64,000 bases of DNA from an uncultured Alphaproteobacteria bacterium (GTDB lineage Bacteria; Pseudomonadota; Alphaproteobacteria; RF32; CAG-239): the NCBI GenBank assembly GCA_910577095.1, contig CAJTLY010000004.1:51021-115020 (forward strand), in the 5' to 3' direction. How positions within the stretch are numbered: the stretch's first letter is position 1; each line of letters starts with the position of its first letter. The position numbers were made by a program, and so were the translations under genes. The notes below the pieces were generated by a model that was not told where the DNA came from, did no database searches, and saw nothing but the letters and a program-made list of their open reading frames with translations. Below are positions 13,330 through 31,115 of the stretch, one piece after another.

Positions 13330-14130
13330 TTAATCGGTCGCTTCCGAAGCCTTGAAATTATAGAGGGGGATAATCCGGTCGGTAATTTCCACCGTTTCGC
13401 CGACGGCATCAATAATCACCTGCATATCCTTATAGGCCATCGGCGATTCGTCCGGTGTATCGGCCCCAACGCAGGAACTCCAGACATTTTGCATTTTTTG
13501 CCTAAATTCATCCACATCCAAAGTCTTGCGTGCCCGGAGGCGTGACAAAATCCGCCCGGCCCCGTGCGGCGCCGAACAGTTCCATTCCGGATTGCCTTTG
13601 CCGACCCCGATCAACGAACCGTCCCGCATATTCAGCGGAATAATAACCCGTTCCCCTTTTTGCGCCGAAATGGCGCCCTTACGGATAATCATTTCCCGCT
13701 TACCGGTAAATTCAATATAATTATGATGGGTAAAAATCGATTCTTCAACTCTCCAGCCCATATGCGAACAAATCTCATCGACAATCACTTCATGATTGCG
13801 GCGGGCAAACACTTCGGCAACTTTCATATGTTCAACATACAGATCAAGGTCCTCGCCTTCCAAACAACACAACTCCTCAGGCGGCGCGCACTTTTCCTTA
13901 TACGCCTTCAGTCACTTTGCCTTTTGGTGCGACGGCACTTCGCTCAAACCTTTTTCGCGCCCTTCGGTCACTTTTTGCTTATAAGTTTCTATTGCTTTCG
14001 CCTGATGAAACTCGCAAATCTGCTTGCCGAAATTGCACGAACCGCAATGAACCGACAACCATAAAAAACCGTTCTTACCGCGATTTATTTCCCAAAAGTG
14101 GTTCCCGTCCCCAAGCTGCCGATCGAGCAC
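13330..14130 (-). pseudogene. rtcB: RNA ligase RtcB, truncated and frameshifted remnant
   Basis: Two adjacent ORFs in different frames. 13912..14130 encodes ...LGDGNHFWEI...HCGSCNFG (the GNHF and HSGSRG region of RtcB). 13330..13872 encodes ...HHNYIEF...APHGAGR...ESPMAYKDM (the RtcB C-terminal half). The N-terminal ~165 aa are absent. Confidence 0.6.
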
Positions 14131-15190: not shown

Positions 15191-15219
15191 TTGACTAATT
15201 AAAAAAATCCGGTTATTAA
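15191..15219 (+). promoter_or_regulatory. candidate sigma70 promoter for tRNA-Leu (-35 TTGACT, 17-bp spacer, -10 TATTAA)
   Basis: Hexamers sit about 10 nt upstream of the mature tRNA 5' end. Confidence 0.4.
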
Positions 15220-16220
15220 AATATCCGTTGCCCTGATGGCGGAATTGGTAGACGCGCAAGTTTCAGGTACTTGTGACCGGTTTGGTCGTGGAAGTTCGAG
15301 TCTTCTTCAGGGCACCAATCTTGACAACCTCCTAAATTTGATAGGAGGTTGAAGTTTTTTCTCATTGAAATAACTGGATTTTTCCCTTCCATAAAAAAGT
15401 TCGCAAAAACAATATTTAAAATTCGTCTTTTTTCTTCAATTTGCGAACTTTTGAAAATCTCATAAGAATTTTGACTAAAATTCAATACCTTATCAATAGC
15501 TCTCTCCACAGAAGTATCAGGAGCTTGCAATGATTGAATTTTATTTTGTAAGTCAATCTTTTGCATTTCATATTCAGCATTTTTACTACGATATACTTCA
15601 GCAGATATAGTTTCTGCAATTAACAAGTCTAAAAGTTTCTTCTGTTTTTGTTCAACATCAGACAATTCATTTTTGCTTTTTTCTAATTGATAACTTGTTC
15701 TTCCGTGAGTTATCTCATATTGTTTTTTCAAACGAGTTGCTAAGCTAGCCTTTAAATCATCATCAAAACTAATGGATAAAAGAGATTTATGAACTTCGTT
15801 CAAGATAATTTGCTCACTAACATTGGTGCAATGCTCACAATCTTTCAGTTCTGTATGTCTTAAATAAACATACTTACCTTTTTTAGTGTATGGAGAAAGT
15901 AAGCAACCACAATATTTGCAACGGACTAATCCTCTAAAAATATAGGGTTCTTTAGTATGTTTTGAAGTTCTTTTGAATTTTCCTGTTCTTATTTCTGTGC
16001 ATTTGTCAAAAAGCTCTTTAGAAATAAGCTTCTCATAGATATGAGGAAAAAAAGTTTTATTGTAAAACATCACACCATAATAGAATGGATTTTGCAAAAC
16101 ACTTGCAAATTGTGATTTTGTCATTGGGTTTCCACTCTTACGATTTTTTAATCCCCATTGCTTAGATTTTTTAACCAATTCATCCATTGAGAATAGCCCA
16201 GTTGAGTATTCCTCAAACAA
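15216..16220 (-). CDS. large serine recombinase, C-terminal part (recombinase domain, zinc ribbon, coiled coil); frameshifted relative to the N-terminal ORF
   Basis: Zinc ribbon RCKYCGCLL...DCEHC followed by a coiled-coil segment. The ORF runs antisense through the tRNA-Leu gene, so the true C-terminus is uncertain. Confidence 0.6.
   Translation of the reverse strand: MFEEYSTGLFSMDELVKKSKQWGLKNRKSGNPMTKSQFASVLQNPFYYGVMFYNKTFFPHIYEKLISKELFDKCTEIRTGKFKRTSKHTKEPYIFRGLVRCKYCGCLLSPYTKKGKYVYLRHTELKDCEHCTNVSEQIILNEVHKSLLSISFDDDLKASLATRLKKQYEITHGRTSYQLEKSKNELSDVEQKQKKLLDLLIAETISAEVYRSKNAEYEMQKIDLQNKIQSLQAPDTSVERAIDKVLNFSQNSYEIFKSSQIEEKRRILNIVFANFFMEGKNPVISMRKNFNLLSNLGGCQDWCPEEDSNFHDQTGHKYLKLARLPIPPSGQRIF
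15230..15317 (+). tRNA. tRNA-Leu (anticodon CAG), class II with long variable arm
   Basis: Acceptor stem GCCCTGA/TCAGGGC, discriminator A, CCA end. Anticodon stem CAAGT/ACTTG with loop TTCAGGT (anticodon CAG). Long variable arm and a GTTCGAGTC T-loop region. Confidence 0.85.
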
Positions 16221-16780
16221 TTTTTTATTATAGGTCCTCTTTCAGGGTCAATAATAATTGTTTTCTTTCCCTTTTCATCTCTCACATTTAAATAACCAAT
16301 AGGTGCAGGACCGGGAAGTAAACCTTCTTTAAGCATTCTTTCCTCAGACCTTCTTACATTATCTCTGGTTGAATTAACAAACATATTTGCAGATAAAATT
16401 TGCATTTGCCACATTGCCAAATCAGAACTCTTAAAGTTCTTATCAATCACAAGTCCTTCCTTAAAGAAATGAAGAGCAAGTTTTCCTTTCTTCACAAGTT
16501 CTAAAAGCATTGGGAATTCATTAAAAGTTCTTTGTAATCTGTCAACAGTATCAACTACAAGAGCAGTTAATTTAGTCTGATGCTTGATGTAATTCACTGC
16601 TTCATAAAATTTAGTCCTTTTTCCGTGGAAAGAACTTTCCACAAAAGTAAATTCTTTTGCTATTTCCAGACCTTTTATTGAGCAATAGTTGCGTAACCTA
16701 TCTAGTTGAGCATCTAAAGAGAATCCATCCTCTTGCATTTCGGTGGATACACGAGCTAGAACAACAGCTTTCATATCCAT
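16148..16780 (-). CDS. large serine recombinase, N-terminal resolvase-type catalytic domain; frameshifted, joins ORF 15216..16220 at an A6/T6 homopolymer (16221-16226)
   Basis: MDMKAVVLARVSTEMQEDGFSLDAQ... contains the catalytic Ser motif. The two ORFs overlap 16148-16220 in different frames. Confidence 0.6.
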   Translation of the reverse strand: MDMKAVVLARVSTEMQEDGFSLDAQLDRLRNYCSIKGLEIAKEFTFVESSFHGKRTKFYEAVNYIKHQTKLTALVVDTVDRLQRTFNEFPMLLELVKKGKLALHFFKEGLVIDKNFKSSDLAMWQMQILSANMFVNSTRDNVRRSEERMLKEGLLPGPAPIGYLNVRDEKGKKTIIIDPERGPIIKNCLRNTQLGYSQWMNWLKNLSNGD

Positions 16781-17732
16781 TCTCCTAATTTACCTGTTTA
16801 TGCATTTCAATTTCTAATAATATCAACAATAGTTGGAAAACATCATCCCCAACTTCAGTTATTTTTTTTGAGTTTTTATTTTGATAATTAAGGCAATCCA
16901 TAGCACACCTTCAAATGAAAGTTGAAACTATAATTGCTATTTTATGGATATGTAATTTAAGGGTTAGAGGATAAAACCACCTCATTGAATGACGAGATAA
17001 TATATTAAAAGTTTTTAAAAGTCAAATTTCTGTAAAATTTTTTTATTAAGCAAAAACAGTATGTTATTCTGATTTGAAAAAATAAAAATTTTTCTGGCAT
17101 TTTTAATAAATAAATTTAGCAGAATAATTTTGCATATAGAAAATCAAATATGATACTATAAGAATAAATGACATACCAATCACAGATTTCATAATCTGTG
17201 CCACAAAAACGGGGAAACAGGCTTTTTTATGAGCACCCTCAAGCAGGGAACAAACTGAAAACCTATGAAGACTTGCCCATTGGTGTAAGCACCGCAAAGT
17301 AACTCCTCCAAAGACGGTCGGCGGAATATAAATAGGACACGGCTGATGATGTCAGTTAGAAAAATGAGGCTCTGTCTGTGCTCCTTGACAACCTCGGCAT
17401 TGTAGAATTTAGTTCTTGTTTGGATTTTACAATGTGCCAACCGAAAAAGCAGGTGGAAGGCTCATATTGGCGGTGTATGAGTTGTAAAGAAATTTACTAT
17501 AACCAAAACAAGAAAGCAAACTCAACGAAAATGCTATATTTTTTTACCCTCGTAAGTTGGGTAAAAAGAGCAAATCTAACGAAAATACTGAAATACATTA
17601 ATTAATCTAAAAAAATAAATTAAAAAAAATAAAACAAGCAATCTGTGATTGCGAAGTTTCTAGCTAAAACGAAACGTAGTGAGTTTTGGCTTAAGAATAT
17701 GATAAATACATTTATCACAAATAAGGAAATAA

Positions 17733-18005
17733 ATGAATAAATCAACAATGAATAACCAACTTAATTTAGTCATAGATGTAGCAAATAATTTAATCAAAGA
17801 AGGAAAAATAAATAGTTTTCGTGAATTTAGCTGCAAATATTTAAATAAATGCAGTAATTACCTTGGAACATTAGTTTACCAAAACAAATATCCAAGTATA
17901 GCATCTATTTTAACCTTATATCTTAAATTAAATCAGGAAAAACAGATGTCAAATTGGCAAAATAAACTGCTAGGTATATTAAAAAATTCTATTATTAAGG
18001 AGTAA
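17733..18005 (+). CDS. hypothetical protein (island cargo)
   Basis: 90-aa AT-rich ORF, tightly coupled to the following ankyrin gene. Confidence 0.3.
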   Translation: MNKSTMNNQLNLVIDVANNLIKEGKINSFREFSCKYLNKCSNYLGTLVYQNKYPSIASILTLYLKLNQEKQMSNWQNKLLGILKNSIIKE

Positions 18006-18007
18006 AA

Positions 18008-18634
18008 ATGAATGAGGGTAAAGATTATACAAGAAGAATTATAGATAATGCAGTAAGGGAAGATAGAAAAGATATCGGATATTTAGAAGATGAATTAGAA
18101 TTAATTGATATAGATGATTTATCATATTTTTATGAAGATAGGAAAAATAACATATTCAATATTTTTTTGACAAGTAAGTCATATCATTTACTTCTTCAAA
18201 TGTTAGATAGAGCCCTAATAAATCAAAATTTGAAAAATGGATATTCCTTAGCATCTGCGGTTGTTTGTAATTCAAATCTTCAACAATTTCAAAAAATCAT
18301 TGTATTAAGGAAAATGCTAAATTTAGGTTTTAATATAAATTGGAGAGATAAAAATAAAGAAACAATTTTATATCAAAGTATTAGACGAAACCTAAAAGAA
18401 ATTTCTATTTTTCTTTTAGAAAATCAAGCAAACCCCAATATTGGTAATGAGTTTAATGTTACACCTTTAATGATTGCTGGGTATAATGATATGATATACC
18501 TATCCTCATTACTAATTTATTATGGTGCTGATATAAATGCTAAAACAAAAATCAATAATTTGAGTATTAAAGATATCATAAGAGAATCAATAGGATTCAA
18601 TGTAGAAAATTTAATGACTGAATTTAATGATTAG
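18008..18634 (+). CDS. ankyrin-repeat protein
   Basis: Tandem ANK-like repeats: ...ETILYQSIRRNLKEISIFLLENQANPNIGNEFNVTPLMIAGYNDMIYLSSLLIYYGADINAKTK... Confidence 0.6.
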   Translation: MNEGKDYTRRIIDNAVREDRKDIGYLEDELELIDIDDLSYFYEDRKNNIFNIFLTSKSYHLLLQMLDRALINQNLKNGYSLASAVVCNSNLQQFQKIIVLRKMLNLGFNINWRDKNKETILYQSIRRNLKEISIFLLENQANPNIGNEFNVTPLMIAGYNDMIYLSSLLIYYGADINAKTKINNLSIKDIIRESIGFNVENLMTEFND

Positions 18635-18658
18635 AGAATTTGTTTAATTGATAAACTT

Positions 18659-18693
18659 AAAGCCTCAAGATTAGATAACCTTGAGGCTTTTAT
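18659..18693. terminator. bidirectional rho-independent terminator (aagcctcaa/ttgaggctt stem)
   Basis: Lies between the convergent genes 18008..18634 (+) and 18695..19030 (-). The stem is followed by a T-rich tail. Confidence 0.5.
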
Positions 18694-18694
18694 G

Positions 18695-19030
18695 TTACTG
18701 TAAATTTGCAGATACTTCAAATTTTACACTACCTATCTGAATTCTAATAGAATTTGGATAGAAATCTAGTAAGTAGCTATCACAATTCTTAAATTTTTTA
18801 ATTAATTTATGTAGTAATGCATAATCCGAAATAGTGTATATTGCCCTTAATTTATGTTCTTCACTTATATGATTTAAGACACTTATTGGCATTTCAATGT
18901 TTCTATACACGAAAATAATGTTATCTTCATATATCTCAATATAAAGAGTAGATTTTCTACCACCTCTTAAATTTTTAGTTATATGAGACAACTGTTTGCG
19001 TAAATCTTCTCCCAATACTTCAAATAGCAT
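18695..19030 (-). CDS. hypothetical protein (last gene of the helicase/MTase operon)
   Basis: 111-aa ORF 12 nt downstream of the helicase gene on the same strand. Confidence 0.3.
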   Translation of the reverse strand: MLFEVLGEDLRKQLSHITKNLRGGRKSTLYIEIYEDNIIFVYRNIEMPISVLNHISEEHKLRAIYTISDYALLHKLIKKFKNCDSYLLDFYPNSIRIQIGSVKFEVSANLQ

Positions 19031-19042
19031 AATAGTTCCTTT

Positions 19043-22000
19043 TTACTTAAAAACCTTATCTAAATCTTTTTCCAGAGTTCCTTTTTGAACAGAAGGTAAA
19101 GTGTCAAATAATCTTAAATTATGTTTATCAATACTCATTTTCTCATCAAAACCTAAAATATAAGCAGTTGCAATACGATAGATAATTTCTGTTGGAGCTA
19201 AACCATAAACTTGATTTGCAAAAATATGTTCTAATCTTTCTTGTTCATTTGGATATTTTTGTTTCAAATTACTGCTATTAAATAGTCTTTTTACAATTTC
19301 TGTAATGTAGAGACCTGATTTCATATATAAATCAATAAAAGTTCTATCTGAATTTTCAAAACATTCAGGACATTCTTTTTCTAAATTATCAACCATTTCT
19401 TTTACAACTTTTTTAGGAGTATAGATTTGGTTTGTTTTTTGCGGTGGAATATAATCAAATATATCTTCTATCTGTTCTTCATCAAAATAATTACTTAATT
19501 TAGTTCTTAAATTTAGAAATTCTTTTACAGAATCATTAAAGACTACTGGGTCAAATAAATTTCCAGCATAATGTTTTGTTTCACCTGTTTTATCATCTAC
19601 ATAATCCCCACCATCTCTTAAAAATCTAAATTCATCAAGAGTTATGCTGGTAACTTCCTTAAATACTTCATTTGGAATAATTGTATCAAAATTCTCTAAT
19701 GTTGTATTTTCGTCTCCATAAGCCATTAAAAATGAGGGGATTGTTCTTGAAAAACCTCTTAAATGGTCTCGAACACCTTCTTCAATACTTTTCTTTTCTC
19801 TTTGTTTAATGTCTGTTTCTGTTATTTCTACAATTGTCTTACCAGCTTCGTGAACGACTTGATTAATTGAATTCTTTAATGTTTCAGCTAGATTATTTTC
19901 AACAATAGATTTGGTTGCATCAAATTTTTGGTTAATAGCAGCTATTTCTTTTTCATTTTTTGCTTGCTTGATTTCTACATTTCTGTCTCGTTCAAGTCTT
20001 TCAATATCAATTTTATAAGAACCAAATTGTTTTTCAAAAGTTCTTTCGGCATCAGCATTTAATGTTTGAATCAGTTTCTTTTGAGCAGATTTGCTTAAAT
20101 CTTTTCCATATTCTTTTTTCGCAATTTCAATCATTGCCGAAGTTCCTATATGAAATTTTTCTTTCAAATCTTCTTTGATTTCATCAACTTCTTTTTTACT
20201 TTGAATTTCATCTTTTATTGTTTCAACTGTTTTAACTAGTTCATCTTCAATATTATTATATAATTTTTCTCCAAATATATCTGTAGCTTTACCAATAACC
20301 ATTTCCGATGGCAATTCAATTTCTCCCTCAGTATTAATATTGAGTTTATCTTTTGTTTCGGATGTAACTCCGATAGGCTCTTTTTGCGGGGTGAAATTTT
20401 GTATTATATCAATAACTTCTTTTGGAGCATTAAAGATATTACTGATATTTTGGAATAAAAAATTGCACATAAAGCCCTTACGAACAACTTCTTTTGCATA
20501 AATTTTACGAGGGATGGCAAGAACTTTTTCTGCATCAAGAGTTATCATTTCTCCTTCGTCATCTTCACCATACACGGGGAAGAAGTTAATTAACTCTCTG
20601 ATGTTTTGCTTACGGTCGTCTATACTTCCTTTACCAGCAGAAGTTGTAGTGTTTAAATCATTAGCAAATTGTTCAAAAACAACTAATGTTCGAGCAGGGT
20701 CAAAATCAAATACATAAGCATTTTCTTTACGAAATTGCTGTTGTCCATATTTAAATAAACAAGGATTCTGAGCTCTAAAAGCAGCTTGCATATATAGAGC
20801 AGGACTTTTTACATTGCTTAGCATTAATACAGCAGTCCATTCCGGCACAGTAACTCCTGTTGTTAATTGTCCAACAGAAATTGTAATTGTCTTGTCATTT
20901 TCTTTGATTGCCTTTACAACTTTATCAAAGGACTTTTGATTTTCTGTATCCTCATCTAAATTACCATCACCAGCAACTAGGACTATTTCATATTCCCTAA
21001 ATATTGGATGTTCTTTCAATTTCTTTGCTAATGCTTTGGCACTATCAACACGATTTAACAGCCAAAAAGTATGTCGTAATTCATTTCTAAGTTCTTCTGT
21101 TGAAAATGGAAATTTTGTTTGAGTGGTTAATGCTTCTAAAAATTTATCTACATCAGCATCATATTTGAATGAGCCATTTGAATTAGTGATGAAGAACTCA
21201 TTTAAATCAAATGCATAGCTTTCTGTTTCTCCATCATCATCAAAATCAGCACCTTTTTGTAGCTTATCTCTAATGATTTCAGACATTTGATAAGTATAAA
21301 GATTTAATTGAGGTAGAGTAGAATAAGGATTTTCTTCTTCTTTTGTTTCGTCCCATTCTTTTTTTGCCTTTTGTTCATCAGCATATGTCCAGTTGTATAC
21401 AGCTTTTTCTTCAAATTTTGAATTAGCCAAAGCTCTAAAAGGAGTTCCTGATAAATGAAGAGTATATTTCCTTTTTATATTATCAAAAGCAACATCAGCC
21501 CTATATGTATCAATACCTTCGTGAGACTCATCAATAATCAACAAATCCCATTTTAATTGGGCAATATGCTTTAATTTGTCATATTTTCCACCAAAATCTA
21601 TTGCACCTTTAAGGTCTTGTAATGATATAAATTCTATATATTTTCTTGCTGAGGGTGGTAAATTTTCTCTTTTTACAACACAAGGTTTGTTTTTTAGTGT
21701 ATCAACCTGACTAACAAAAAAGTAACCAGATTGAGTTCCAAAAAATTTTTCATAATCACTATACCACGAGGTTGCAATAGCTGGACGATGTGTAACTATT
21801 AGAACTGTTTTAGCATCTAATTGTTTACATAAATCATATGCTGAAAGAGTTTTACCAAATCGAGGTTTTGCATTCCATAAAAACTCAGGCTCATCATCTG
21901 CATATTGTTGAAAATATGATTTTGCTTGCTGCACAGCTTTTTGCTGTTCTGTTCTTAATTTATATTCTATTACGACATCTGTTTGAGCAATTCCTCTATT

Positions 22001-22336
22001 TGCCCTAAATTCATCGAATCGTTGCTTGGATGTTTGAGGTAGGATATGAAACCATTCTGTTCCTATTTTTCTCTCAATTCCAATTTTTTTCAAATAACAA
22101 TGAAAATCAGTATCGTGAAAAATATCTCCTGAACCATCATCATATATAGCATTGGCTTTCCACTCTATTTTATACTCTATATCAGCAGTTTGGGTTTGTT
22201 GCCTAACACGAGTTTCAACATCTTGTTCTGTAAAGCCTATCTTAGTCCAACCATTATGAGTAGCAATTTGAGGAGTAGTGTAGGCATAACACATAGGTAT
22301 TACTTTTTTGCTTGTCTTGATGTTGATTTTAGCCAT
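19043..22336 (-). CDS. GIY-YIG-like (T5orf172/MUG113) nuclease domain fused to an SF2 helicase; putative restriction/defence enzyme (Type III Res-like role)
   Basis: N-terminal GWTKIGFTEQDVETRVRQQ (T5orf172-type GIY-YIG core). Walker A NAKPRFGKT, DExH box LLIIDESHEG, motif III LSGTPF. Long C-terminal region of about 500 aa. Immediately downstream of the MTase ORFs on the same strand. Confidence 0.6.
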   Translation of the reverse strand: MAKINIKTSKKVIPMCYAYTTPQIATHNGWTKIGFTEQDVETRVRQQTQTADIEYKIEWKANAIYDDGSGDIFHDTDFHCYLKKIGIERKIGTEWFHILPQTSKQRFDEFRANRGIAQTDVVIEYKLRTEQQKAVQQAKSYFQQYADDEPEFLWNAKPRFGKTLSAYDLCKQLDAKTVLIVTHRPAIATSWYSDYEKFFGTQSGYFFVSQVDTLKNKPCVVKRENLPPSARKYIEFISLQDLKGAIDFGGKYDKLKHIAQLKWDLLIIDESHEGIDTYRADVAFDNIKRKYTLHLSGTPFRALANSKFEEKAVYNWTYADEQKAKKEWDETKEEENPYSTLPQLNLYTYQMSEIIRDKLQKGADFDDDGETESYAFDLNEFFITNSNGSFKYDADVDKFLEALTTQTKFPFSTEELRNELRHTFWLLNRVDSAKALAKKLKEHPIFREYEIVLVAGDGNLDEDTENQKSFDKVVKAIKENDKTITISVGQLTTGVTVPEWTAVLMLSNVKSPALYMQAAFRAQNPCLFKYGQQQFRKENAYVFDFDPARTLVVFEQFANDLNTTTSAGKGSIDDRKQNIRELINFFPVYGEDDEGEMITLDAEKVLAIPRKIYAKEVVRKGFMCNFLFQNISNIFNAPKEVIDIIQNFTPQKEPIGVTSETKDKLNINTEGEIELPSEMVIGKATDIFGEKLYNNIEDELVKTVETIKDEIQSKKEVDEIKEDLKEKFHIGTSAMIEIAKKEYGKDLSKSAQKKLIQTLNADAERTFEKQFGSYKIDIERLERDRNVEIKQAKNEKEIAAINQKFDATKSIVENNLAETLKNSINQVVHEAGKTIVEITETDIKQREKKSIEEGVRDHLRGFSRTIPSFLMAYGDENTTLENFDTIIPNEVFKEVTSITLDEFRFLRDGGDYVDDKTGETKHYAGNLFDPVVFNDSVKEFLNLRTKLSNYFDEEQIEDIFDYIPPQKTNQIYTPKKVVKEMVDNLEKECPECFENSDRTFIDLYMKSGLYITEIVKRLFNSSNLKQKYPNEQERLEHIFANQVYGLAPTEIIYRIATAYILGFDEKMSIDKHNLRLFDTLPSVQKGTLEKDLDKVFK

Positions 22337-22341
22337 AGTTC

Positions 22342-23328
22342 TTACTCCATAGGTTTAATCATAGTTTCAATGAAATCTATTTCTTCTTGGGTCAAACCAT
22401 ATTTCTTGTAAAGTTTCTCGTCAGTCCAAGATTCGTTAAAGTTTAGCCAAGGAACAAATTGGAAATTATTTATCGAAATATTCATCCCTGATAATGTTTG
22501 TAAAATCAAAAATCTAACAAATTTTGTCCTCAAATAATGATATATATTTTCTGTTTGTTCTTTATTTGTTGTTGGGCATATAATTAAATAGGATTGGTTA
22601 CAAATTTGATTAGGTTTTAATATTTCCATTCGACTTAAAACACGATACATTCCATTTTTATCAGGATTTCCAGCGTGCTCACAAGATAATTTTGAAATCA
22701 TAGTTTTATATAGGTCAATATTGTTTTTACCTTTTTCTACTTTGTTCCTTTCAACAAAGCCCCAACCTTTACTACTTACTATTTCACAGTCATCACCATT
22801 GGTTTTTTGGTCTGTTCCCTTAAAAGTTGATAAAAAACCAAAAGGAGTTTGGGGGCTACATCCTCCATCGTTTGATAGAAAGTTATTAGTAGAATTGGTA
22901 ACTTTATTAATTATAGAAATAGCCTCATTTCTTCGGATAAAGATTTTATGTTCATTTAATTTTCTTGAATATAATTTTCTTCCATTTTTATTTACACTAG
23001 TAAATTTGCATAATCCTTTATAAGCCTTATTCCAAAGGAAATAACAAATTCCTCCATTGATATCTACATTAGGAAAGCAATAATTCGAATCTATAAAATC
23101 TACAATTGTTTGAATTCTATCATCATTTAACATTTTTTCTCTAAAATCATCTAAGCCAACACCTCCTGAAAACCATCTGGCCGGAATAATCATTGTTAAT
23201 GCTGAAGGATTAGATTTTAAAGCTTCATCTACAAATTTTTGATAAAGGGGAATTGCTCCTAGACCTTTTCCAGCTTCATTAACTTGCATTTGATATGGAG
23301 GATTTCCTACAATATAATCAAATTTCAT
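22342..23328 (-). CDS. N6-adenine DNA methyltransferase, catalytic motif IV (NPPY) part
   Basis: Begins MKFDYIVGNPPYQ... Its ATG overlaps the stop of the upstream ORF (ATGA). Confidence 0.6.
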   Translation of the reverse strand: MKFDYIVGNPPYQMQVNEAGKGLGAIPLYQKFVDEALKSNPSALTMIIPARWFSGGVGLDDFREKMLNDDRIQTIVDFIDSNYCFPNVDINGGICYFLWNKAYKGLCKFTSVNKNGRKLYSRKLNEHKIFIRRNEAISIINKVTNSTNNFLSNDGGCSPQTPFGFLSTFKGTDQKTNGDDCEIVSSKGWGFVERNKVEKGKNNIDLYKTMISKLSCEHAGNPDKNGMYRVLSRMEILKPNQICNQSYLIICPTTNKEQTENIYHYLRTKFVRFLILQTLSGMNISINNFQFVPWLNFNESWTDEKLYKKYGLTQEEIDFIETMIKPME

Positions 23329-24407
23329 TTTTTATTTCCTTTCAAAAGGTAAAATTCAACAGCACCACTTTTATCTCGCCAATTTTTTATTTTGCAAAAC
23401 ATTGGAGGGTTGCTTTTCGGTAAATTGTTAAAAAGCTCTAATTGTCTGTCATCTTCATTGGAATCGCTAAAAGGAGCTGTATCTGTAAGCCCATCCATCT
23501 GCCAAATGTTCCACGCAATTACATTGGCTATTTGTTTGATTTGTGTTAGTGTTGGTTGTCTTTTGTGTTTGAATTTAAAGTTATCAATAAATGTCCAAAG
23601 AAGATTTTCTCTTGCTAAAAGCAAGTTATCTCCTTGGTATTCATAGCCATAAGTGGCTTCATATGCTCGTTTTGCCCAATTAAACCAATCTGTTTCATTT
23701 GTTGTATTTTCATTAACTATGCGAAGTTTTCTATCTAAAAGACCAATTCTTTTCTCTATTGGCAAAAACTCTCCGGTAGTTGTGTCATATCTGGAAACAA
23801 GATAAGGTGCTTCACCACAGGTTATTTCTAATCTTTTTGAATCAACATATTTCATCCAACCTTCTTTTTTGCTTTTCTTATCTTCTGCAAATTGTATAGG
23901 TTCTGTTGTTGGTATCCAATCGTGACCATTTGGGGTATTAAATACATTGGAATAACCAAACCATTCTTCATCACAATGGTTGTTCATTTCATTACAAATC
24001 CAAGAAGGAGTAAAAACCTCAGCCGATTTACGAGTTCTGTTTATTTGTTCATCTTTGGTTTTTGATATTCTTGGTTGGATTATTCTAGTGTTATCTTTGG
24101 TAATAAGTTCCGGAAGTATTTCTTTTTCAGCAGTATAGGCTTCTCCATATTTGGCATATTCATCACAAGCAAAACGAATGTATTTTCCGGTTGTCTTATC
24201 TTGAAGCAAGATTTTTAATAAAAAAGGACTAAGTTCTTCAATATCTTGCTCTAATATATCAATGTCTTCATCTTTTGATGCTGTAACATCATCTTTATAA
24301 TCTTCTAAATTGTAAATTTGAGCATATGAATCCCATCCCCTTACTTGTTTGCTTAAGGGTGTTTCTTTTTCTAATAGTGATATATTATTACTGACACATT
24401 CTAACAC
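23325..24407 (-). CDS. N-terminal partner/segment of the DNA methyltransferase (motif X-like VFTPSWI; degenerate motif I-like LEITCGEAPYL)
   Basis: 360-aa ORF ending ...GNKK* in an A6 tract directly before the next ORF's ATG. Combined length with the next ORF is about 689 aa, typical for Type III Mod proteins. Confidence 0.45.
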   Translation of the reverse strand: MLECVSNNISLLEKETPLSKQVRGWDSYAQIYNLEDYKDDVTASKDEDIDILEQDIEELSPFLLKILLQDKTTGKYIRFACDEYAKYGEAYTAEKEILPELITKDNTRIIQPRISKTKDEQINRTRKSAEVFTPSWICNEMNNHCDEEWFGYSNVFNTPNGHDWIPTTEPIQFAEDKKSKKEGWMKYVDSKRLEITCGEAPYLVSRYDTTTGEFLPIEKRIGLLDRKLRIVNENTTNETDWFNWAKRAYEATYGYEYQGDNLLLARENLLWTFIDNFKFKHKRQPTLTQIKQIANVIAWNIWQMDGLTDTAPFSDSNEDDRQLELFNNLPKSNPPMFCKIKNWRDKSGAVEFYLLKGNKK

Positions 24408-24422
24408 TGGGCTAATTCACCA

Positions 24423-24600
24423 ATTAACCCACCCTATTTTAGGGAATACTCATTTAAAATATTAATTTTGTGGGAATATGCTTATTTTCAAAGCATAAGA
24501 TAAGATTCTAATTGATTATTTTAGATTAATTTGTATGATATCAGAAGCGAGATAATTAATTGGTGAATTAATTATCTCGCTTATTTTTTTATGTATTTTT
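24423..24600. promoter_or_regulatory. inverted-repeat region between the MTase operon and the invertase gene: 15-bp IR (taattcaccaattaa ... ttaattggtgaatta) plus a perfect 15-bp-arm hairpin and a T-run
   Basis: IR copies at 24423-24437 and 24566-24580. Hairpin gcgagataattaatt-ggtg-aattaattatctcgc at 24557-24590, followed by ttattttttt. Confidence 0.45.
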
Positions 24601-24628
24601 GTTCAATCTGATAAATATTTAAAAAGGA

Positions 24629-25231
24629 TTGAATATGATATATGGATATATAAGGGTTAGCACACAAACTCAGGTCTTAGAGAACCAAAGATTAGCAATT
24701 TCAACATATTGTGAAGCAAATAATATAGAAATTAATAAGTGGGTAGAAGAAAAAATATCTTCAAGAAAACCTCTAAAAGAAAGAAAACTAGGCAAATTAC
24801 TCAAAAAGCTCAAAAAAGGAGATATCTTAATTGCATCAGAACTAAGTAGGCTTGGGCGTAATTTGTTAGAAGTTATGGGTATTTTGAAGGAATGTTTAGA
24901 AAGAGAGTGCCAAATATGGACATTAAAAGAGAACTATCGTCTTGGTTCTGATATCCAAAGCAAAGTTCTTGCTTTTGCTTTTAGTTTGGCTGCAGAAATA
25001 GAAAGACAACTTATTTCTGAAAGGACAAAAGAAGCTCTAAAAAGAGTTAAGGCAGAAGGAAAGCACCTAGGTCGTCCTTTCGGTCGTAAAAGTGCTTTCA
25101 ATGATTTAAAGAAAAATAAAGAGCGAATTCTACAATTGGCAGAACAAAATATTCCTAAAACACAAATAGCCAGAATGTTTAAGGTTGATAGAAGCACTAT
25201 TAGAAGGTTTATAAACCAACATAAAGATTAG
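24629..25231 (+). CDS. small serine recombinase (DNA invertase/resolvase family) with C-terminal HTH
   Basis: MNMIYGYIRVSTQTQVLENQ... (catalytic Ser), ...GKHLGRPFG..., C-terminal HTH ...KTQIARMFKVDRSTIRRF... Confidence 0.75.
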   Translation: MNMIYGYIRVSTQTQVLENQRLAISTYCEANNIEINKWVEEKISSRKPLKERKLGKLLKKLKKGDILIASELSRLGRNLLEVMGILKECLERECQIWTLKENYRLGSDIQSKVLAFAFSLAAEIERQLISERTKEALKRVKAEGKHLGRPFGRKSAFNDLKKNKERILQLAEQNIPKTQIARMFKVDRSTIRRFINQHKD

Positions 25232-25247
25232 AGAAATAGTGCATTAA

Positions 25248-25808
25248 CTATCTTTTTTTCAAATAACTGTAAACTGTAGGTCTAGTGATTTTAAATTGTT
25301 TTGCAATCCGAGAAATAGGCATTCCTTGACTATGCATATTATTTAATTCAGTAATTTGCTCACTACTTAGTTTGTTTTTTCCACCTTTGTATTTCCCTTT
25401 AGCTTTTGCTATTGCAATACCCTCTCTTTGTCTTTCTAATAGAATAGCCCTTTCAAGCTCTGCAACAGCTCCTAACATAACCATCATCATTTTTTGATAG
25501 GGGTCTTGTTTTTCATTTTCCTTAAAAGTCAGGTTTTCTTTATGAAAAATAATAGTAGCTCCTTTTGAGGTTATTTTTTCTACAAGATTCAATAAATCAC
25601 GAGTGTTACGAGCCAAGCGACTCATCTCGTGTATGTTAATGATATCGTTTGCCCTAATATTTGCCAACATTGCTTGTAACTGAGGACGATTGGTATCTTT
25701 ACCACTAATTTTTTCTTCATACACTCTGTCACAAGCAACATCTTTTAGTTGTCGTTCTGTGTTTTGCTCAATTGAAGAGACTCGTATATAATTAAATATC
25801 ATTGCCAT
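25248..25808 (-). CDS. small serine recombinase (resolvase/invertase family)
   Basis: MAMIFNYIRVSSIEQNTERQ..., ...GKYKGGK..., HTH ...ISRIAKQFKITRPTVYSYL... Convergent with the previous recombinase, 16-bp gap. Confidence 0.75.
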   Translation of the reverse strand: MAMIFNYIRVSSIEQNTERQLKDVACDRVYEEKISGKDTNRPQLQAMLANIRANDIINIHEMSRLARNTRDLLNLVEKITSKGATIIFHKENLTFKENEKQDPYQKMMMVMLGAVAELERAILLERQREGIAIAKAKGKYKGGKNKLSSEQITELNNMHSQGMPISRIAKQFKITRPTVYSYLKKR

Positions 25809-25814
25809 ACCTCT

Positions 25815-25906
25815 TAATGTAAAATCTATATTTAAGAATATATTTTACAATTGTAAAATCGTCAAGTAAAATAATTTAGATTTTACACTTTTGTAAATGT
25901 AAAAAC
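25815..25906. promoter_or_regulatory. res-like site: cluster of TGTAAAAT-type half-sites including a perfect 18-bp palindrome attttacaattgtaaaat upstream of the resolvase gene
   Basis: Copies at 25819-25827, 25842-25859 (palindrome), 25877-25887 (inverted) and 25893-25906. Three-subsite organisation over about 90 bp. Confidence 0.4.
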
Positions 25907-26024
25907 AGGGTATGCTTGGGTTTGTCAATTTAAATGAAGAGTTATAAGGGAATAAATTAATTCTATAGACTCTTTGGTATATTATAATATAATTGTTCCA
26001 TCAAAATATTGTATGAGGTATTTT

Positions 26025-28328: not shown

Positions 28329-28331
28329 GTT

Positions 28332-28988
28332 TTAGTTTTTTACAAAATCTCTCATAGCTTCAATTAATTCATCAAAATTGGTAGAGGGTCTTATTCTCCA
28401 ATCTCCTAATTTGGAATTGTTTGTTCTTAATTTTTTAGCCCTTGAGATAGCTTTATCTTCATTATCATTAACCAGCATTAAATCTATATCAAACCTTTTG
28501 TTGGTTTTTGCATTATATCTAGGAAGATATATTTTTAATTCTTTTTCCAACTCATTTTTGGTGGTTGGTGTTTTATCTGAAAAATGCATCAAAGCCCACA
28601 ATTCAACAGACCTATTAGAACAAATGACTTTAATATTATTGTCTTTTGCTTCCTCAAAAGCCTTGTCAAAATTCTCTTTATCTTTCCCTCCTATGCTTCT
28701 ATCATCTTCATCAAACACAGCATAAAAAGTATCTAAATAATTTTTTGCTGGTTTCTTTGCTTCAATTAAATTTTCAACAATTTTTAAAGGTTCCGATTCA
28801 TATTTTGAAGCCACAATTTCAAATTTAGTCATAGCTTTAATATGATTTACACCATTTTTAGCAGCAAAATTTCTAATCCAATCAGTTAAATATTGTGGTT
28901 CAGTTACATCACCTTCGGTAAAAATAACCATTTTGGAAGCACTTCTTTCTTTTCTATTGTGCCTATTTTTTCTATCTAAACTAACCAT
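28332..28988 (-). CDS. RloB-like/TOPRIM-like protein (AbiLii/AriB-type partner)
   Basis: ...MVIFTEGDVTEPQYL... matches the RloB N-terminal 'vcEGekTEpnYf' motif. A DxD-type acidic motif AVFDEDD is present. Immediately downstream of the ATPase gene with a 4-nt gap. Confidence 0.65.
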   Translation of the reverse strand: MVSLDRKNRHNRKERSASKMVIFTEGDVTEPQYLTDWIRNFAAKNGVNHIKAMTKFEIVASKYESEPLKIVENLIEAKKPAKNYLDTFYAVFDEDDRSIGGKDKENFDKAFEEAKDNNIKVICSNRSVELWALMHFSDKTPTTKNELEKELKIYLPRYNAKTNKRFDIDLMLVNDNEDKAISRAKKLRTNNSKLGDWRIRPSTNFDELIEAMRDFVKN

Positions 28989-28991
28989 TAG

Positions 28992-30272
28992 CTATTCCTT
29001 TGCTTCCAAAATATTAGCTAATTCATTAATATCTCCCAAATATGGAATTGCTCCGAATCTGCCCTCTAAATAGCCTTTTTCATAATTAAAGCCTTCTCTG
29101 ATAGCCTTAAATTCAGTTAAAGGATAAACCTCAGAACATCCTTCTTCATTCTTTTCAACAAACCAAATTTCATCTCTCTTGAGAATATTTGATTTAAGGA
29201 TGGAAGTATTATGAGTGGTAAAAATAAGCTGTGCCCCACCAATATTAATATTGGGGTTATTAAACATCTCAACAATTTTAGCCAGCATCATCGGATGTAA
29301 CTTTTCTTCAAGCTCATCAATAATATAAATTCCACCACCAACTAAAATTGGAACAAACATAACCAAGTATTTTGCAAACTGCCCAGTCCCCCAGCTTTCT
29401 GAAGAAATAGGTAATTCATACTTTTTATTGTTTACCCCAATATGTTCAAAGTTAATTTTATAATGTTTTCCGGTTGGAGAGGTAGTAAAAGGTAGTGCAG
29501 ATGAATCTTTTTCTTCTTCAACTTTAATATCTGTAATTCCCAAATCTGCATATTTAATTAACTCAACAACTTTCTTATGCAAGGATTTGTCCTGATAAAT
29601 CTTTTCTGCCAAGCTATCCATATTAAACATTGTTTCTAAGATATTTATAAAAGTAACCTTACAAATATCTTTTAAGGCCTCAAAAATATTATGAATATAA
29701 GAAATTCCTCTTGTATCCAAAATATCAAGAACAAGCAAATCCTGTCTTTTGCCTAAAGAATCTTCTATATATTTAATATCAAATTTTGATATAATTTCTT
29801 TGTATGGTTTGTAAATATTGCTTTCAACTCTATCATAAATGACTTTTTTATTTTTATTCTGATATTCTGTTAAGTTTTCTGTCAGTATTCCTGTTTTATC
29901 AAAGCTAAATGATAAAATATATCTAATATCATCAAGACAGAAGTCTATTTCTATAGATGATGGTCTTGATGCAGATTCGTCATCTAATAAAAATGGCTTA
30001 TAAAATTCAAATGATGGTTTACTATCTGTTTTTCCTAACAAAGGCAAGACAATATCATTAAACACTTTAACAATATTGCTCTTTCCGGAAGCATTGGCTC
30101 CATAAAATGCAGTAACAGGAGTAATCAAATCATCTCCAATAGCATTAACTCTTCTAATATAAGATGTCGGGGTATTGCTATATTTAGATTCCGCTGTAAA
30201 AAATATTTCCTGTTCATCTTTAAACGACAAGATATTTGCAAATTTAACTCTTAATAAATTTACTTTAGCCAT
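28992..30272 (-). CDS. AAA_21/ABC-type ATPase (AbiLi/AriA-type)
   Basis: Start chosen at MAKVNLLRVKF with a GGAG SD. Walker A GANASGKSN. Walker B/D-loop IYIIDELEEKLHP. ...LIFTTHN... (H-loop). Confidence 0.65.
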   Translation of the reverse strand: MAKVNLLRVKFANILSFKDEQEIFFTAESKYSNTPTSYIRRVNAIGDDLITPVTAFYGANASGKSNIVKVFNDIVLPLLGKTDSKPSFEFYKPFLLDDESASRPSSIEIDFCLDDIRYILSFSFDKTGILTENLTEYQNKNKKVIYDRVESNIYKPYKEIISKFDIKYIEDSLGKRQDLLVLDILDTRGISYIHNIFEALKDICKVTFINILETMFNMDSLAEKIYQDKSLHKKVVELIKYADLGITDIKVEEEKDSSALPFTTSPTGKHYKINFEHIGVNNKKYELPISSESWGTGQFAKYLVMFVPILVGGGIYIIDELEEKLHPMMLAKIVEMFNNPNINIGGAQLIFTTHNTSILKSNILKRDEIWFVEKNEEGCSEVYPLTEFKAIREGFNYEKGYLEGRFGAIPYLGDINELANILEAKE

Positions 30273-30472
30273 TTTTTTGCTCCGGCAGTTGTTGTTTGTA
30301 ATCAAAATATAGAAATAAAAAGCAAAAAAATCAACACTTTTATTTAAAATTCGTAAAAAAATTACAAATTTTTATAAAAAACATCATTTTTTTTGATTTT
30401 ATTTTTGCAAATACTCTTAAAATAATGTAATATACCAAACATAAAATAACACTATTTATTAGGAGAAAAAAT

Positions 30473-30856
30473 ATGTCTGAAATTAAAACTCAAGAAGAAT
30501 TTGAAGCAAAAATAAATGATTTGGTTGATAAAATTAATAATGCTCCAACCAATTTAATAAGAGGTGACTTATTGGAGTTATGGGATGATTGCAGAGAAGC
30601 AGTATACTTTTGTCCTGAAAATGGCTATGGTCCTATCTATACAGAGCTCAGAGCTATTCCAGAAAATAATAAATTTTCTGAAATATTAGTATATATAAAA
30701 TCAGAATATTATCTGTTTTTGGAATTGAGAGACAATCTTGTCTATAAACCGATGTCATTTCTTGAAACACTAAGCTATGTTTGTGATGAGTATATATATC
30801 ATTTAAGGAATTCCTTTGAAGCAGCAGAAAGAGAACGAGAAAGAGAAAAAGCTTAG
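30473..30856 (+). CDS. hypothetical protein (island cargo)
   Basis: 127-aa ORF with AGGAG SD upstream. No motifs recognised. Confidence 0.3.
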   Translation: MSEIKTQEEFEAKINDLVDKINNAPTNLIRGDLLELWDDCREAVYFCPENGYGPIYTELRAIPENNKFSEILVYIKSEYYLFLELRDNLVYKPMSFLETLSYVCDEYIYHLRNSFEAAEREREREKA

Positions 30857-31115
30857 TTATGTATTCTGTTTTTTTGATATAATTATAAGCGATAATCGAC
30901 GCAAAATTTGCGGAGAATATGATGATTATTATCCGCAAGTCACTATATTTTAATTATTGCCACTCATTTATTACATTGGTCTCATCAACTATAGAGTTCA
31001 ACAATTCGTCAACTTTGGTGCACCATAACTCAAAACCCTCCCTTGCGGAGGGTTTTGAGTTATAATAAACCTCACTATTCCCTCTTCGTTCAATATAAGA
31101 TACTTTTTTCACAGC

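Follow-up and report, generated by a model that had tools for sequence, protein, structure and literature searches.

How did a block of AT-rich DNA with candidate anti-phage genes come to lie at the very 3' end of a tRNA gene, and which enzyme placed it there? The question is raised by a stretch of 64,000 nucleotides from an uncultured Alphaproteobacteria bacterium (assembly GCA_910577095.1, contig CAJTLY010000004.1, positions 51,021 to 115,020; hereafter the window). Here an island directly follows the gene for tRNA-Leu(CAG), and its first gene encodes a large serine recombinase (LSR). tRNA genes are textbook targets of tyrosine integrases; for serine integrases, most known sites lie in genes for proteins or between genes.

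We read the island as a 15.7-kb integrative element of cassette type, which was put into the 3' end of tRNA-Leu(CAG) by the LSR encoded at its left end and which is now probably fixed in place; we assign this reading a probability of roughly 0.85. The evidence supports an inserted island of foreign composition at this tRNA end, with a frameshifted LSR gene and defence genes, as had been proposed in a preliminary description made from the sequence alone. Related loci and contigs are denoted L and homologous LSR proteins P, each followed by a number. Positions are those of the window unless a locus is named, and the features are collected in Table 1.

The island, its recombinase gene and the occupied site

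Between positions 15318 and 31019/31020 (about 15.70 kb) the GC content is 0.290, compared with 0.489 in the flanks. In intervals of 500 bp, the mean is 0.289 for the island (standard deviation 0.035, maximum 0.34, n = 31) and 0.489 for the flanks (standard deviation 0.037, minimum 0.392, n = 95), and the two distributions do not overlap. GC content falls within less than 100 bp of the 3' end of tRNA-Leu and rises again at 31000-31100. The preliminary description had reported a sharp drop 3' of the tRNA gene with a recovery near 31050. The step from 0.49 to 0.29 is confirmed; the right border, on the other hand, has to be placed at 31019-31025.

Pfam matches, a structure model and the translation agree that the first island gene is an LSR with catalytic serine domain, zinc ribbon and coiled coil, which is frameshifted and runs antisense into the tRNA gene, as had been described. 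Its N-terminal domain also matches the catalytic domain of the TP901-1 integrase (3BVP, E 6e-7), and in the alignment of LSR homologues the ARVST serine, residue 10 of P0001, does not vary. The C-terminal open reading frame (ORF) contains the Recombinase domain PF07508 (E 5e-10) and a zinc ribbon (Zn_ribbon_recom, PF13408, E 7e-5), the latter scoring 23.6 bits and thereby just under the curated cut-off of 25.3. An AlphaFold2 model built from a 30-sequence alignment reaches a mean predicted local distance difference test (pLDDT) score of 78.5 and shows long helices at residues 339-386 and 392-416. By Foldseek, it matches the full-length LSR-DNA complexes 9Y66, 9DXD and 9DXH, Bxb1 (9IU2), PhiC31 (9TEP) and LI integrase (4KIS) with E-values from 3.5e-19 to 1.5e-12. 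The C-terminal ORF passes antisense through the entire tRNA-Leu gene and stops at 15216-15218, 12 nucleotides past the tRNA 5' end.

The gene is split into two ORFs which overlap in different frames, the result of a 1-nucleotide deletion in a run of seven A. The intact homologue P0001, 99% identical, reads ...PIIKKLFEEY... at the break point; owing to the frameshift, the window holds no uninterrupted translatable LSR gene. Independent Logan and ENA assemblies, 100% identical to the window over 20 kb, show the same split in every assembly read; the mutation is therefore real in this lineage and no sequencing error confined to one assembly. The recombinase could still be alive at a low level: the zero-frame A_AAA_AAT at 16221-16232 (minus strand) resembles the -1 slippery heptamers of the IS1/dnaX kind, and a -1 shift there, or one A added in transcription, would give a full-length product (...IIKN/K-LFEEY...) and leave the island attenuated rather than immobilised. 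The shift would restore exactly the downstream frame of the intact homologue at the cost of one K-to-N change, and the catalytic and downstream domains are otherwise intact and 99% identical to P0001. Against such a rescue, which we consider improbable, stand the contiguous ORFs of close homologues (P0001, P0002, P0004, P0012, P0016 and others), which carry KK at this site and make the uninterrupted gene the norm; moreover, a run of six A is short for transcriptional slippage, and the numerous truncated members of the family indicate that decay is common. The LSR gene is broken in this lineage, and the island is probably immobilised.

Relatives for comparison were found by scanning species-representative genomes with the MutY protein encoded in the flank, which placed the host in a clade of uncultured gut Alphaproteobacteria; the metagenome-assembled genomes of this clade are filed under 'Azospirillum sp.' or 'Alphaproteobacteria bacterium'. 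Most of them have mutY a short distance downstream of tRNA-Leu(CAG). A TA or TT and a hairpin terminator come directly after the tRNA end (...GCACCA) in L009 and L012-L015, and in L013 and L015 mutY starts within approximately 180-390 bp. Since in these other species terminator and mutY follow tRNA-Leu directly, the island in the window is an insertion. A hairpin orthologous to those adjoining the tRNA in L009 and L012-L015 is present in the window as well, where it follows a second GCACCA at 31020-31025 beyond the far border; the native tRNA terminator has thus been displaced by 15.7 kb. The 3' 30 nucleotides of tRNA-Leu are identical in the window and in the sister species L005 and L008.

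Closer relatives are neither empty nor fully occupied: L005 retains the left arm of an island and a remnant of about 250 bp (9415-9665), and L008 holds a 1-kb mini-island plus a relic attR (8606-9590). Such remnants, together with the relic attR, mark the tRNA-Leu site as a repeatedly used hotspot. The suggestion that related genomes would show an empty tRNA-Leu site therefore holds for other species, while within the same species all sites read are occupied.

Attachment sites and the exchanged recombinase tail

The half-site-like similarity at both borders that had been noted before is real, but short. Between attL and attR the block of identity is confined to GCACCA, at 15312-15317 (the last 6 nucleotides of the tRNA) and 31020-31025; this block spans the final two base pairs of the acceptor stem, the discriminator base and CCA, and the arms match in addition. 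No longer direct repeats were found at the island borders, in line with the 6-bp core expected for an LSR. The reconstructed attP is an imperfect palindrome, GTCAAGATTGGTGCACCAAAGTTGAC. Read in the sense of the LSR gene, with the left side of attR joined to the right side of attL, it is ...GTCAAGAT TGGTGC ACCAAAGTTGAC..., palindromic at 22 of 26 positions around GGTGCACC. The P, P' and B half-sites have xCxAAxxxxGAC in common, and the B arms of tRNA-Leu and tRNA-Thr both carry GAC at positions 10-12. Judged from their sequences, the half-sites have the anatomy expected for LSR sites: they are short, with imperfect dyad symmetry and minimal identity between attP and attB. The tRNA's conserved T-arm together with its acceptor end (..GACTCGAAC..GCACCA) probably serves as the B half-site of this LSR. 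Common to the target sites are GCACCA and the T-loop (GACTCGAAC in antisense), which the enzyme may recognise. When the window was searched for further att-like sites, the test pattern matched attL alone.

The contiguous P'|P junction occurs in nature: it is present in L020 and in seven metagenome contigs, the latter found with a degenerate 34-nucleotide pattern. These were considered as free circular forms and rejected as such, given that the junctions lie in long chromosomal contigs, beside LSR remnants or a newer island linked to a tRNA gene. L021 and L033 contain tandem arrays, where the remnant of an earlier LSR gene adjoins the P arm of an island that arrived later; an occupied site (tRNA plus P') can thus be used again. 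Along the same line, related species show serial integration at the tRNA-Leu(CAG) site in L021 (near 4707), L033 (1247-1492 and 6756-8321) and L011 (449-540 and 3372-3419). Across the relatives, the hotspot contains tandem arrays, remnants in decay and relic attR sites, and the terminator hairpin that comes next differs from one to another.

On integration, attP would recombine with the tRNA end within the shared GCACCA, and the tRNA is regenerated. The same event sets an island-borne terminator-like hairpin behind the tRNA, moves the native terminator to the far border, and exchanges the last 23 or so codons of the LSR gene for 33 antisense-tRNA codons. The two forms of the gene can be read from the window. 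A codon boundary falls exactly at 15317|15318, where the CCA of the tRNA, read antisense, gives TGG and hence Trp. In the integrated state the protein ends in ...GGCQDW-CPEEDSNFHDQTGHKYLKLARLPIPPSGQRIF*, its last 33 codons (15219-15317) being antisense tRNA; the predicted end in the excised state is ...GGCQDW-CTKVDELLNSIVDETNVINEWQ*, read from 31025 down to 30954. The predicted excised tail, WCTKVDELLNS..., has natural counterparts in P0012 (WCTRVDELLNSIVDES...) and P0048 (WCSEVDELLNS...). Residues 482-520, around and after the Trp, have pLDDT values below 50 in the AlphaFold2 model, which puts the exchanged tail outside the confidently folded part of the enzyme. To judge by the model, the tail swap is probably tolerated.

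The P' arm itself contains a hairpin at 15325-15351, a 10-bp stem followed by a T-run, which the terminator scan scored as terminator-like and which lies antisense within the LSR coding sequence. In L005, L020 and L021 its stem is kept by two-sided changes (CCTCC/GGAGG to GCTCC/GGAGC; in L005 also A-T to G-C), and such compensatory changes argue for selection on structure. The hairpin may function as a terminator in place of the displaced native one.

Does the exchange of the tail serve a purpose of its own? The tail swap or the antisense read-through could be regulatory and make the LSR a sensor of integration, be it that stability or activity of the enzyme is altered, or that convergent transcription from the strongly expressed tRNA gene silences the LSR gene. 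Integration-dependent immunity in mycobacteriophages is the analogue for such a sensor. The embedding of attP in the ORF throughout the clade, the codon boundary at CCA, and the conservation of the first 12 or so residues of the attP-form tail, with partly synonymous substitutions, are compatible with it. However, the 36 conserved bp are the P half-site, and constraint at the DNA level suffices to explain the conserved tail; this tail is modelled at low confidence, and the integrated tails differ wholly between tRNA targets. On balance we regard a regulatory role as unlikely, and the exchange as a consequence of where attP lies.

The junction between LSR gene and tRNA is not peculiar to the window. 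Searching with the repaired LSR returned 786 proteins at E <= 1e-20, and tails were examined in the best 120 of these 786, down to 37% identity. Antisense-tRNA tails are present in at least 87 of the 120 by a strict T-loop pattern (about 100 by eye), with the antisense T-loop read as D-S/L-N, always equally far from the junction. Another five end in attP-type tails, and the remainder are truncated or unclear. In the sequences read, no conserved stop codon precedes the tRNA that would make the antisense tails an artefact of gene calling.

This pattern bears on the possibility that the AT-rich block is native, or was built in place by other means such as a lost tyrosine integrase or homologous recombination, with the LSR as mere cargo. 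No empty site was found in this species and the direct repeat at the borders measures only 6 bp, as one would expect on that view. Nevertheless, empty tRNA-Leu sites exist in other species, a Pfam scan of the island found no tyrosine recombinase gene, 6 bp of identity flanked by palindromic arms fits the appearance of an LSR site, and about 100 independent homologues, spread over several tRNAs, repeat the junction geometry. A native or otherwise assembled block is, to our minds, scarcely credible.

Several points nevertheless weigh against the LSR-integrated defence cassette as we read it. The island is present at the same place in 48 of 48 contigs read from this strain or species (24 + 24), and the exact attB junction had no match in metagenome contigs; the assemblies, which are 99.8-100% identical over 20 kb and essentially represent one clone, say little about polymorphism. 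No excised circle was found for this species, and tandem arrays can account for all attP-type junctions detected to date. Neither a transfer function nor a candidate recombination directionality factor or excisionase was identified in the island, PHROGs giving nothing for the small unknown ORFs. Furthermore, attP is symmetric about GC, a dinucleotide that is itself palindromic. With such a centre, the LSRs characterised so far would lose control of orientation; each readable tail among the close relatives (P0001-P0056) is nevertheless of the tRNA-antisense or P-arm type, and no element in opposite orientation was seen. The two observations are at odds, which bears on either the crossover position or the mechanism of polarity. 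As for the cargo, the defence functions are profile matches only, and searches of Pfam, NCBIfam and PDB sequences gave no nuclease domain (Mrr/PD-(D/E)xK) for the methyltransferase/helicase module.

A clade of recombinases at tRNA ends and its known counterparts

The LSR belongs to a large clade from gut metagenomes, nearly all members of which are arranged in this way at different tRNA genes. ARAGORN assigned the target as Leu(CAG) in the window, L021, L023, L033 and L037, as Thr(CGT) in L019, and as Gln(TTG) in L038, whose LSR is 45% identical. Even LSRs that cluster with the enzyme of the window at 90% identity or more end in at least five different tRNA-derived tails. In L019, from an NCBI genome with a flank GC content of 0.40, an intact LSR of 99% identity sits in tRNA-Thr; a core of 3.4 kb (LSR, small ORF, DUF6626 and ankyrin genes) shares 97% nucleotide identity with the window, and the other cargo is different. 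From this similarity at another tRNA gene it follows that the LSR lineage recently moved between hosts and between tRNA genes. The remark in the preliminary description that a serine recombinase abutting a tRNA gene is less common was right and, if anything, understated: tRNA adjacency, together with the position of attP inside the LSR gene, is a hallmark of the whole clade.

We tentatively go one step further, with slightly more doubt than confidence, and propose a large clade of 'tRNA-end' serine integrases. These would use generic tRNA features (T-loop plus acceptor end/CCA) as attB half-site; a single lineage of at least 90% identity is found at several tRNAs (Leu variants, Thr) in hosts of differing GC content; they would carry attP in their own ORF, with an apparently palindromic centre (GGTGCACC), and their attL would be reusable, such that cassettes stack in tandem. 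In the literature searched, whose coverage is incomplete and chiefly lacks subscription journals, we came across neither a clade of LSRs with tRNA ends as targets nor an attP inside an LSR ORF. The TIGER/Islander databases may already hold such cases without comment. The main survey of LSRs leaves tRNA unmentioned (Durrant et al. 2022). In the part of a study on Mycobacterium abscessus that was available, 16 of 23 attB sites of tyrosine integrases overlap tRNA or tmRNA genes, and no tRNA site is named among six serine-integrase sites (PMC10654092).

A different origin of the island, as a decayed prophage or phage satellite with the LSR as the remnant of a phage integrase, suggests itself, as LSRs are classically phage integrases, the DNA invertases of the island match PHROG families, and a GenBank record labelled 'Bacteriophage sp.' contains an LSR of 72% identity. 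This record (MT837677.1) is a chromosomal fragment with LSR, tRNA-Leu and a putative uppP, though. In addition, no phage structural, lysis or replication genes, and likewise no conjugation genes, were found in the island or in the related islands examined; IMG/VR yielded no close relative and one weak partial match; and true phage LSRs are at most 36% identical. A phage origin is very improbable on these grounds, and we retain the cassette-type element. Plasmid relatives of the LSR have identities of at most 36.5%. In the GenBank record (L028), the LSR gene reads into tRNA-Leu(CAG) at 2302-2389, and the downstream ORFs of 291 and 285 amino acids match in size the uppP and M23 peptidase genes of the related loci.

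Among known systems, the staphylococcal cassette chromosome (SCC) elements such as SCCmec come close. They are moved by LSRs (Ccr), are cassette-like without transfer genes of their own, insert at the extreme 3' end of the housekeeping gene rlmH/orfX, which remains functional, carry variable cargo and form tandem arrays. With them the island shares the LSR-driven cassette without identified transfer genes, the 3' end of a housekeeping gene as target, the variable cargo and the tandem stacking; some members of the island's LSR family are even automatically annotated as 'cassette chromosome recombinase B'. In contrast to SCC, the island targets a tRNA end instead of rlmH/orfX, has a single recombinase gene with attP in its ORF, and resides in a gut alphaproteobacterial host. 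To LSRs borne on staphylococcal plasmids, identity is only about 22%.

Genomic islands formed by tyrosine integrases at tRNA genes (P4-type elements, NBU1 at the 3' end of tRNA-Leu, and those collected by Islander/TIGER) resemble the island in that the tRNA is regenerated, the integrase gene adjoins it and the displaced flank marks the far border (PMC4383910). They differ in the recombinase family, and their identity block spans tens of bp, compared with 6 bp here, where the element supplies the last 6 nucleotides of the tRNA only. The filamentous phages phiRSM combine a serine recombinase with a tRNA gene end (tRNA-Ser) as attB as well. Unlike the island, they employ a small enzyme of resolvase/invertase type without recombinase and zinc-ribbon domains, a 13-bp core and an intergenic attP (PMC4471427). 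Finally, the 'suicidal' integrases of SSV-type in archaea carry the att site within the integrase gene, the ORF being partitioned by integration into a tRNA gene (PMC8371274). Those enzymes are tyrosine recombinases, reported as exclusive to archaea, and the partition destroys the integrase, whereas here a tail of about 23 residues modelled at low confidence is exchanged.

In function, the island of the window is an ordinary, grounded defence island with a phase-variable module, yet it is a clear example of an unusual integration system. If the tRNA-end clade holds true, it represents a second and mechanistically distinct route by which tRNA genes become islands, accounts for a defence locus with readily exchanged cargo in gut Alphaproteobacteria that have received little study, and is a bacterial counterpart of the archaeal arrangement with att in the integrase gene. 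It raises questions of LSR biochemistry, namely how polarity is set when the core is palindromic, how attL can serve as a target, and how several tRNA sequences are tolerated. A generic tRNA-end LSR, if real, would have a ready landing site across a wide bacterial range and could be of use in engineering for integration into many unmodified bacteria.

Cargo genes and the invertible segment

Table 1. Features of the island and of its borders in window coordinates, followed by the half-sites, which are read outward from the central GC.
Feature	Position	Strand	Basis or remark
tRNA-Leu(CAG), intact	15230-15317	+	ARAGORN (sole tRNA in window); Rfam tRNA, 50.4 bits
LSR, C-terminal part: recombinase domain, zinc ribbon, coiled coil	15216-16220	-	Pfam; AlphaFold2 and Foldseek
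P' arm	15318-15361	+	starts ACCAATCTTGAC, read from central GC
LSR, N-terminal catalytic domain (ARVST... serine region)	16148-16780	-	Pfam Resolvase PF00239, E 8e-17
LSR frameshift site, A6 run where intact LSR needs A7	16221-16226	-	translation; comparison with P0001
Conserved region upstream of LSR, including ORF of about 38 aa	16781-17159	-	73% nucleotide identity across 11 related loci
DUF6626 protein	17733-18005	+	Pfam
Ankyrin-repeat protein	18008-18634	+	Pfam
111-aa ORF	18695-19030	-	part of RM-like operon 18695-24407
ResIII/Helicase_C protein, 1097 aa	19043-22336	-	Pfam
Methyltransferase, Eco57I-type, 328 aa	22342-23328	-	Pfam/PADLOC
Methyltransferase, 360 aa	23325-24407	-	Pfam/PADLOC
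Invertible segment, 158 bp	24413-24570	.	exact 15-bp inverted repeats 24413-24427 and 24556-24570
Small serine recombinase, DNA invertase type	24629-25231	+	Pfam Resolvase and HTH_7
Small serine recombinase, DNA invertase type	25248-25808	-	Pfam Resolvase and HTH_7
AAA_13 ABC-type ATPase, 784 aa	25974-28328	+	Pfam AAA_13; PADLOC PDC-S06
AbiLii (RloB)	28332-28988	-	PADLOC AbiLii, E 1.5e-18; Pfam
AbiLi (AAA_21)	28992-30305	-	PADLOC AbiLi, E 1e-78; Pfam
127-aa orphan ORF, last island gene	30473-30856	+	called as gene in L001 and L002
P arm and attR core (GCACCA 31020-31025)	30954-31025	-	LSR frame encodes excised-form tail WCTKVDELLNSIVDETNVINEWQ*
Native tRNA-Leu terminator hairpin (B' side), perfect 17-bp inverted repeat	31025-31063	+	repeat and terminator scans
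Half-site P			ACCAAAGTTGAC
Half-site P'			ACCAATCTTGAC
Half-site B (tRNA-Leu)			CCTGAAGAAGAC
Half-site B (tRNA-Thr, L019)			CGCAAAGTGGAC
Half-site B'			ACCATAACTCAA

The cargo appears to be a variable set of anti-phage modules. One LSR protein, P0016, sits in identical form at the orthologous tRNA-Leu gene of a sister species, and what accompanies it differs from sample to sample, from almost nothing, by way of AbiL with an AAA_14/DUF4143 ATPase, to a 1616-amino acid Type ISP enzyme along with PIF1 helicase and small recombinases. In the window, PADLOC, which had been named as a check for defence genes, matched AbiL, PDC-S06, MTase_II and REase_MTase_IIG; NCBIfam added nothing for the cargo.

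The largest module was described as restriction-modification (RM)-like, and this is the right level of description because no nuclease domain was found. Its two methyltransferase genes are translationally coupled. PADLOC matches are MTase_II (E 2e-105 and 7e-38) and REase_MTase_IIG (E 3e-38 and 7e-20); Pfam identifies an Eco57I domain (E 1e-20) and ResIII (E 5e-15), such that an N6-adenine methyltransferase and an SF2 helicase-like motor are both present. The helicase-like protein has no relatives in the PDB by sequence. In profile, the module resembles Type ISP/IIG enzymes. It differs from Type ISP by the split over three to four ORFs instead of a single polypeptide, as well as by the lack of a detected nuclease domain; the sister island of L023, in comparison, encodes the canonical 1616-amino acid Type ISP enzyme.

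For the ATPase described as RloC-like, the AAA_13 ABC-type body is confirmed (PF13166, E 3e-87, residues 33-748). PDC-S06 matches with E 7e-106 and PrrC with E 1e-12 over residues 502-749; a PDB relative was not found by sequence. By these profiles, its best assignment is a PDC-S06 candidate defence protein of a family related to RloC/PrrC. The neighbouring genes AbiLi and AbiLii are 3 bp apart on the same strand. Of the earlier label AbiL/PARIS-like, the AbiL part stands and PARIS was rejected: AriA is merely a secondary match (E 9e-28, behind AbiLi with E 1e-78), AriB was not matched, and the partner is RloB/AbiLii only. The 127-residue ORF has no match in Pfam, PADLOC, NCBIfam or PHROGs.

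The two further serine recombinases are present as described, but they are small enzymes of DNA invertase type (phrog_125 'DNA invertase', E 2e-48 and 1e-60), one of them beside a demonstrated invertible segment. On one side of this segment the methyltransferase operon begins, and on the other, 59 bp away, lies the first invertase gene; the 15-bp inverted repeats of the segment are unique within the window. In the metagenome contig L001 (SRR31800350), positions 24413-24570 are inverted with both flanks collinear; inversion of the segment is thus shown, and both orientations exist in nature. The segment contains a sigma-70-like promoter by consensus match only (TTGATT-16-TATGAT, 24512-24539, plus strand), and its right repeat is part of a terminator-like hairpin (24545-24582). 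In the orientation of the window the promoter is aimed into this hairpin, in that of L001 into the methyltransferase operon, and the two would correspond to OFF and ON, respectively. The DNA invertase would in this way switch the promoter of the methyltransferase/helicase module. With inverted repeats, an adjacent invertase and both orientations observed, the arrangement matches the known invertons.

An imperfect inverted repeat of 18 nucleotides (89%) at 25973-25990 and 30422-30439 brackets the AAA_13/AbiL block; no inverted variant was seen, and the repeat may be either another substrate for an invertase or a coincidence of AT-rich sequence. Beyond the LSR core, the island of L019 at tRNA-Thr has in common with that of the window only the second invertase gene (1430-2196 versus 25156-25924, 94.7% nucleotide identity) and a short piece of the RloB gene (3-87 versus 28338-28422). 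Such sharing suggests that cargo modules are exchanged between islands, possibly along with the small recombinases.

Closer to the LSR, the DUF6626/ankyrin pair is found beside the recombinase gene in L019, L020, L023, L024 and L037 and is missing in L021, L022 and L025-L027; it is an accessory pair which is often, but not always, linked to the LSR. The conserved region upstream of the LSR gene is matched in L020-L028, L033 and L036, and its ORF of about 38 amino acids is called as a gene in L004, L019 and L020. A GC-rich patch (approximately 0.47) at 17170-17450, between LSR and DUF6626 gene within intergenic DNA of GC 0.2-0.3, occurs solely in the variant of the element represented by the window and L019. 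A structured RNA was considered for this patch and rejected, since Rfam gave no match even at E-values up to 1 and the fold z-scores were -0.26 and -0.43.

On the other side of the tRNA gene, between uppP and tRNA-Leu, an RtcB RNA ligase pseudogene lies in fragments at 13330-14130 (minus strand), with Pfam profile positions 228-425 at 13330-13872 and 150-227 at 13912-14130. RtcB repairs tRNAs cleaved by anticodon nucleases. Its pseudogene thus neighbours an island with an RloC/PrrC-related gene, a link which may be coincidental.

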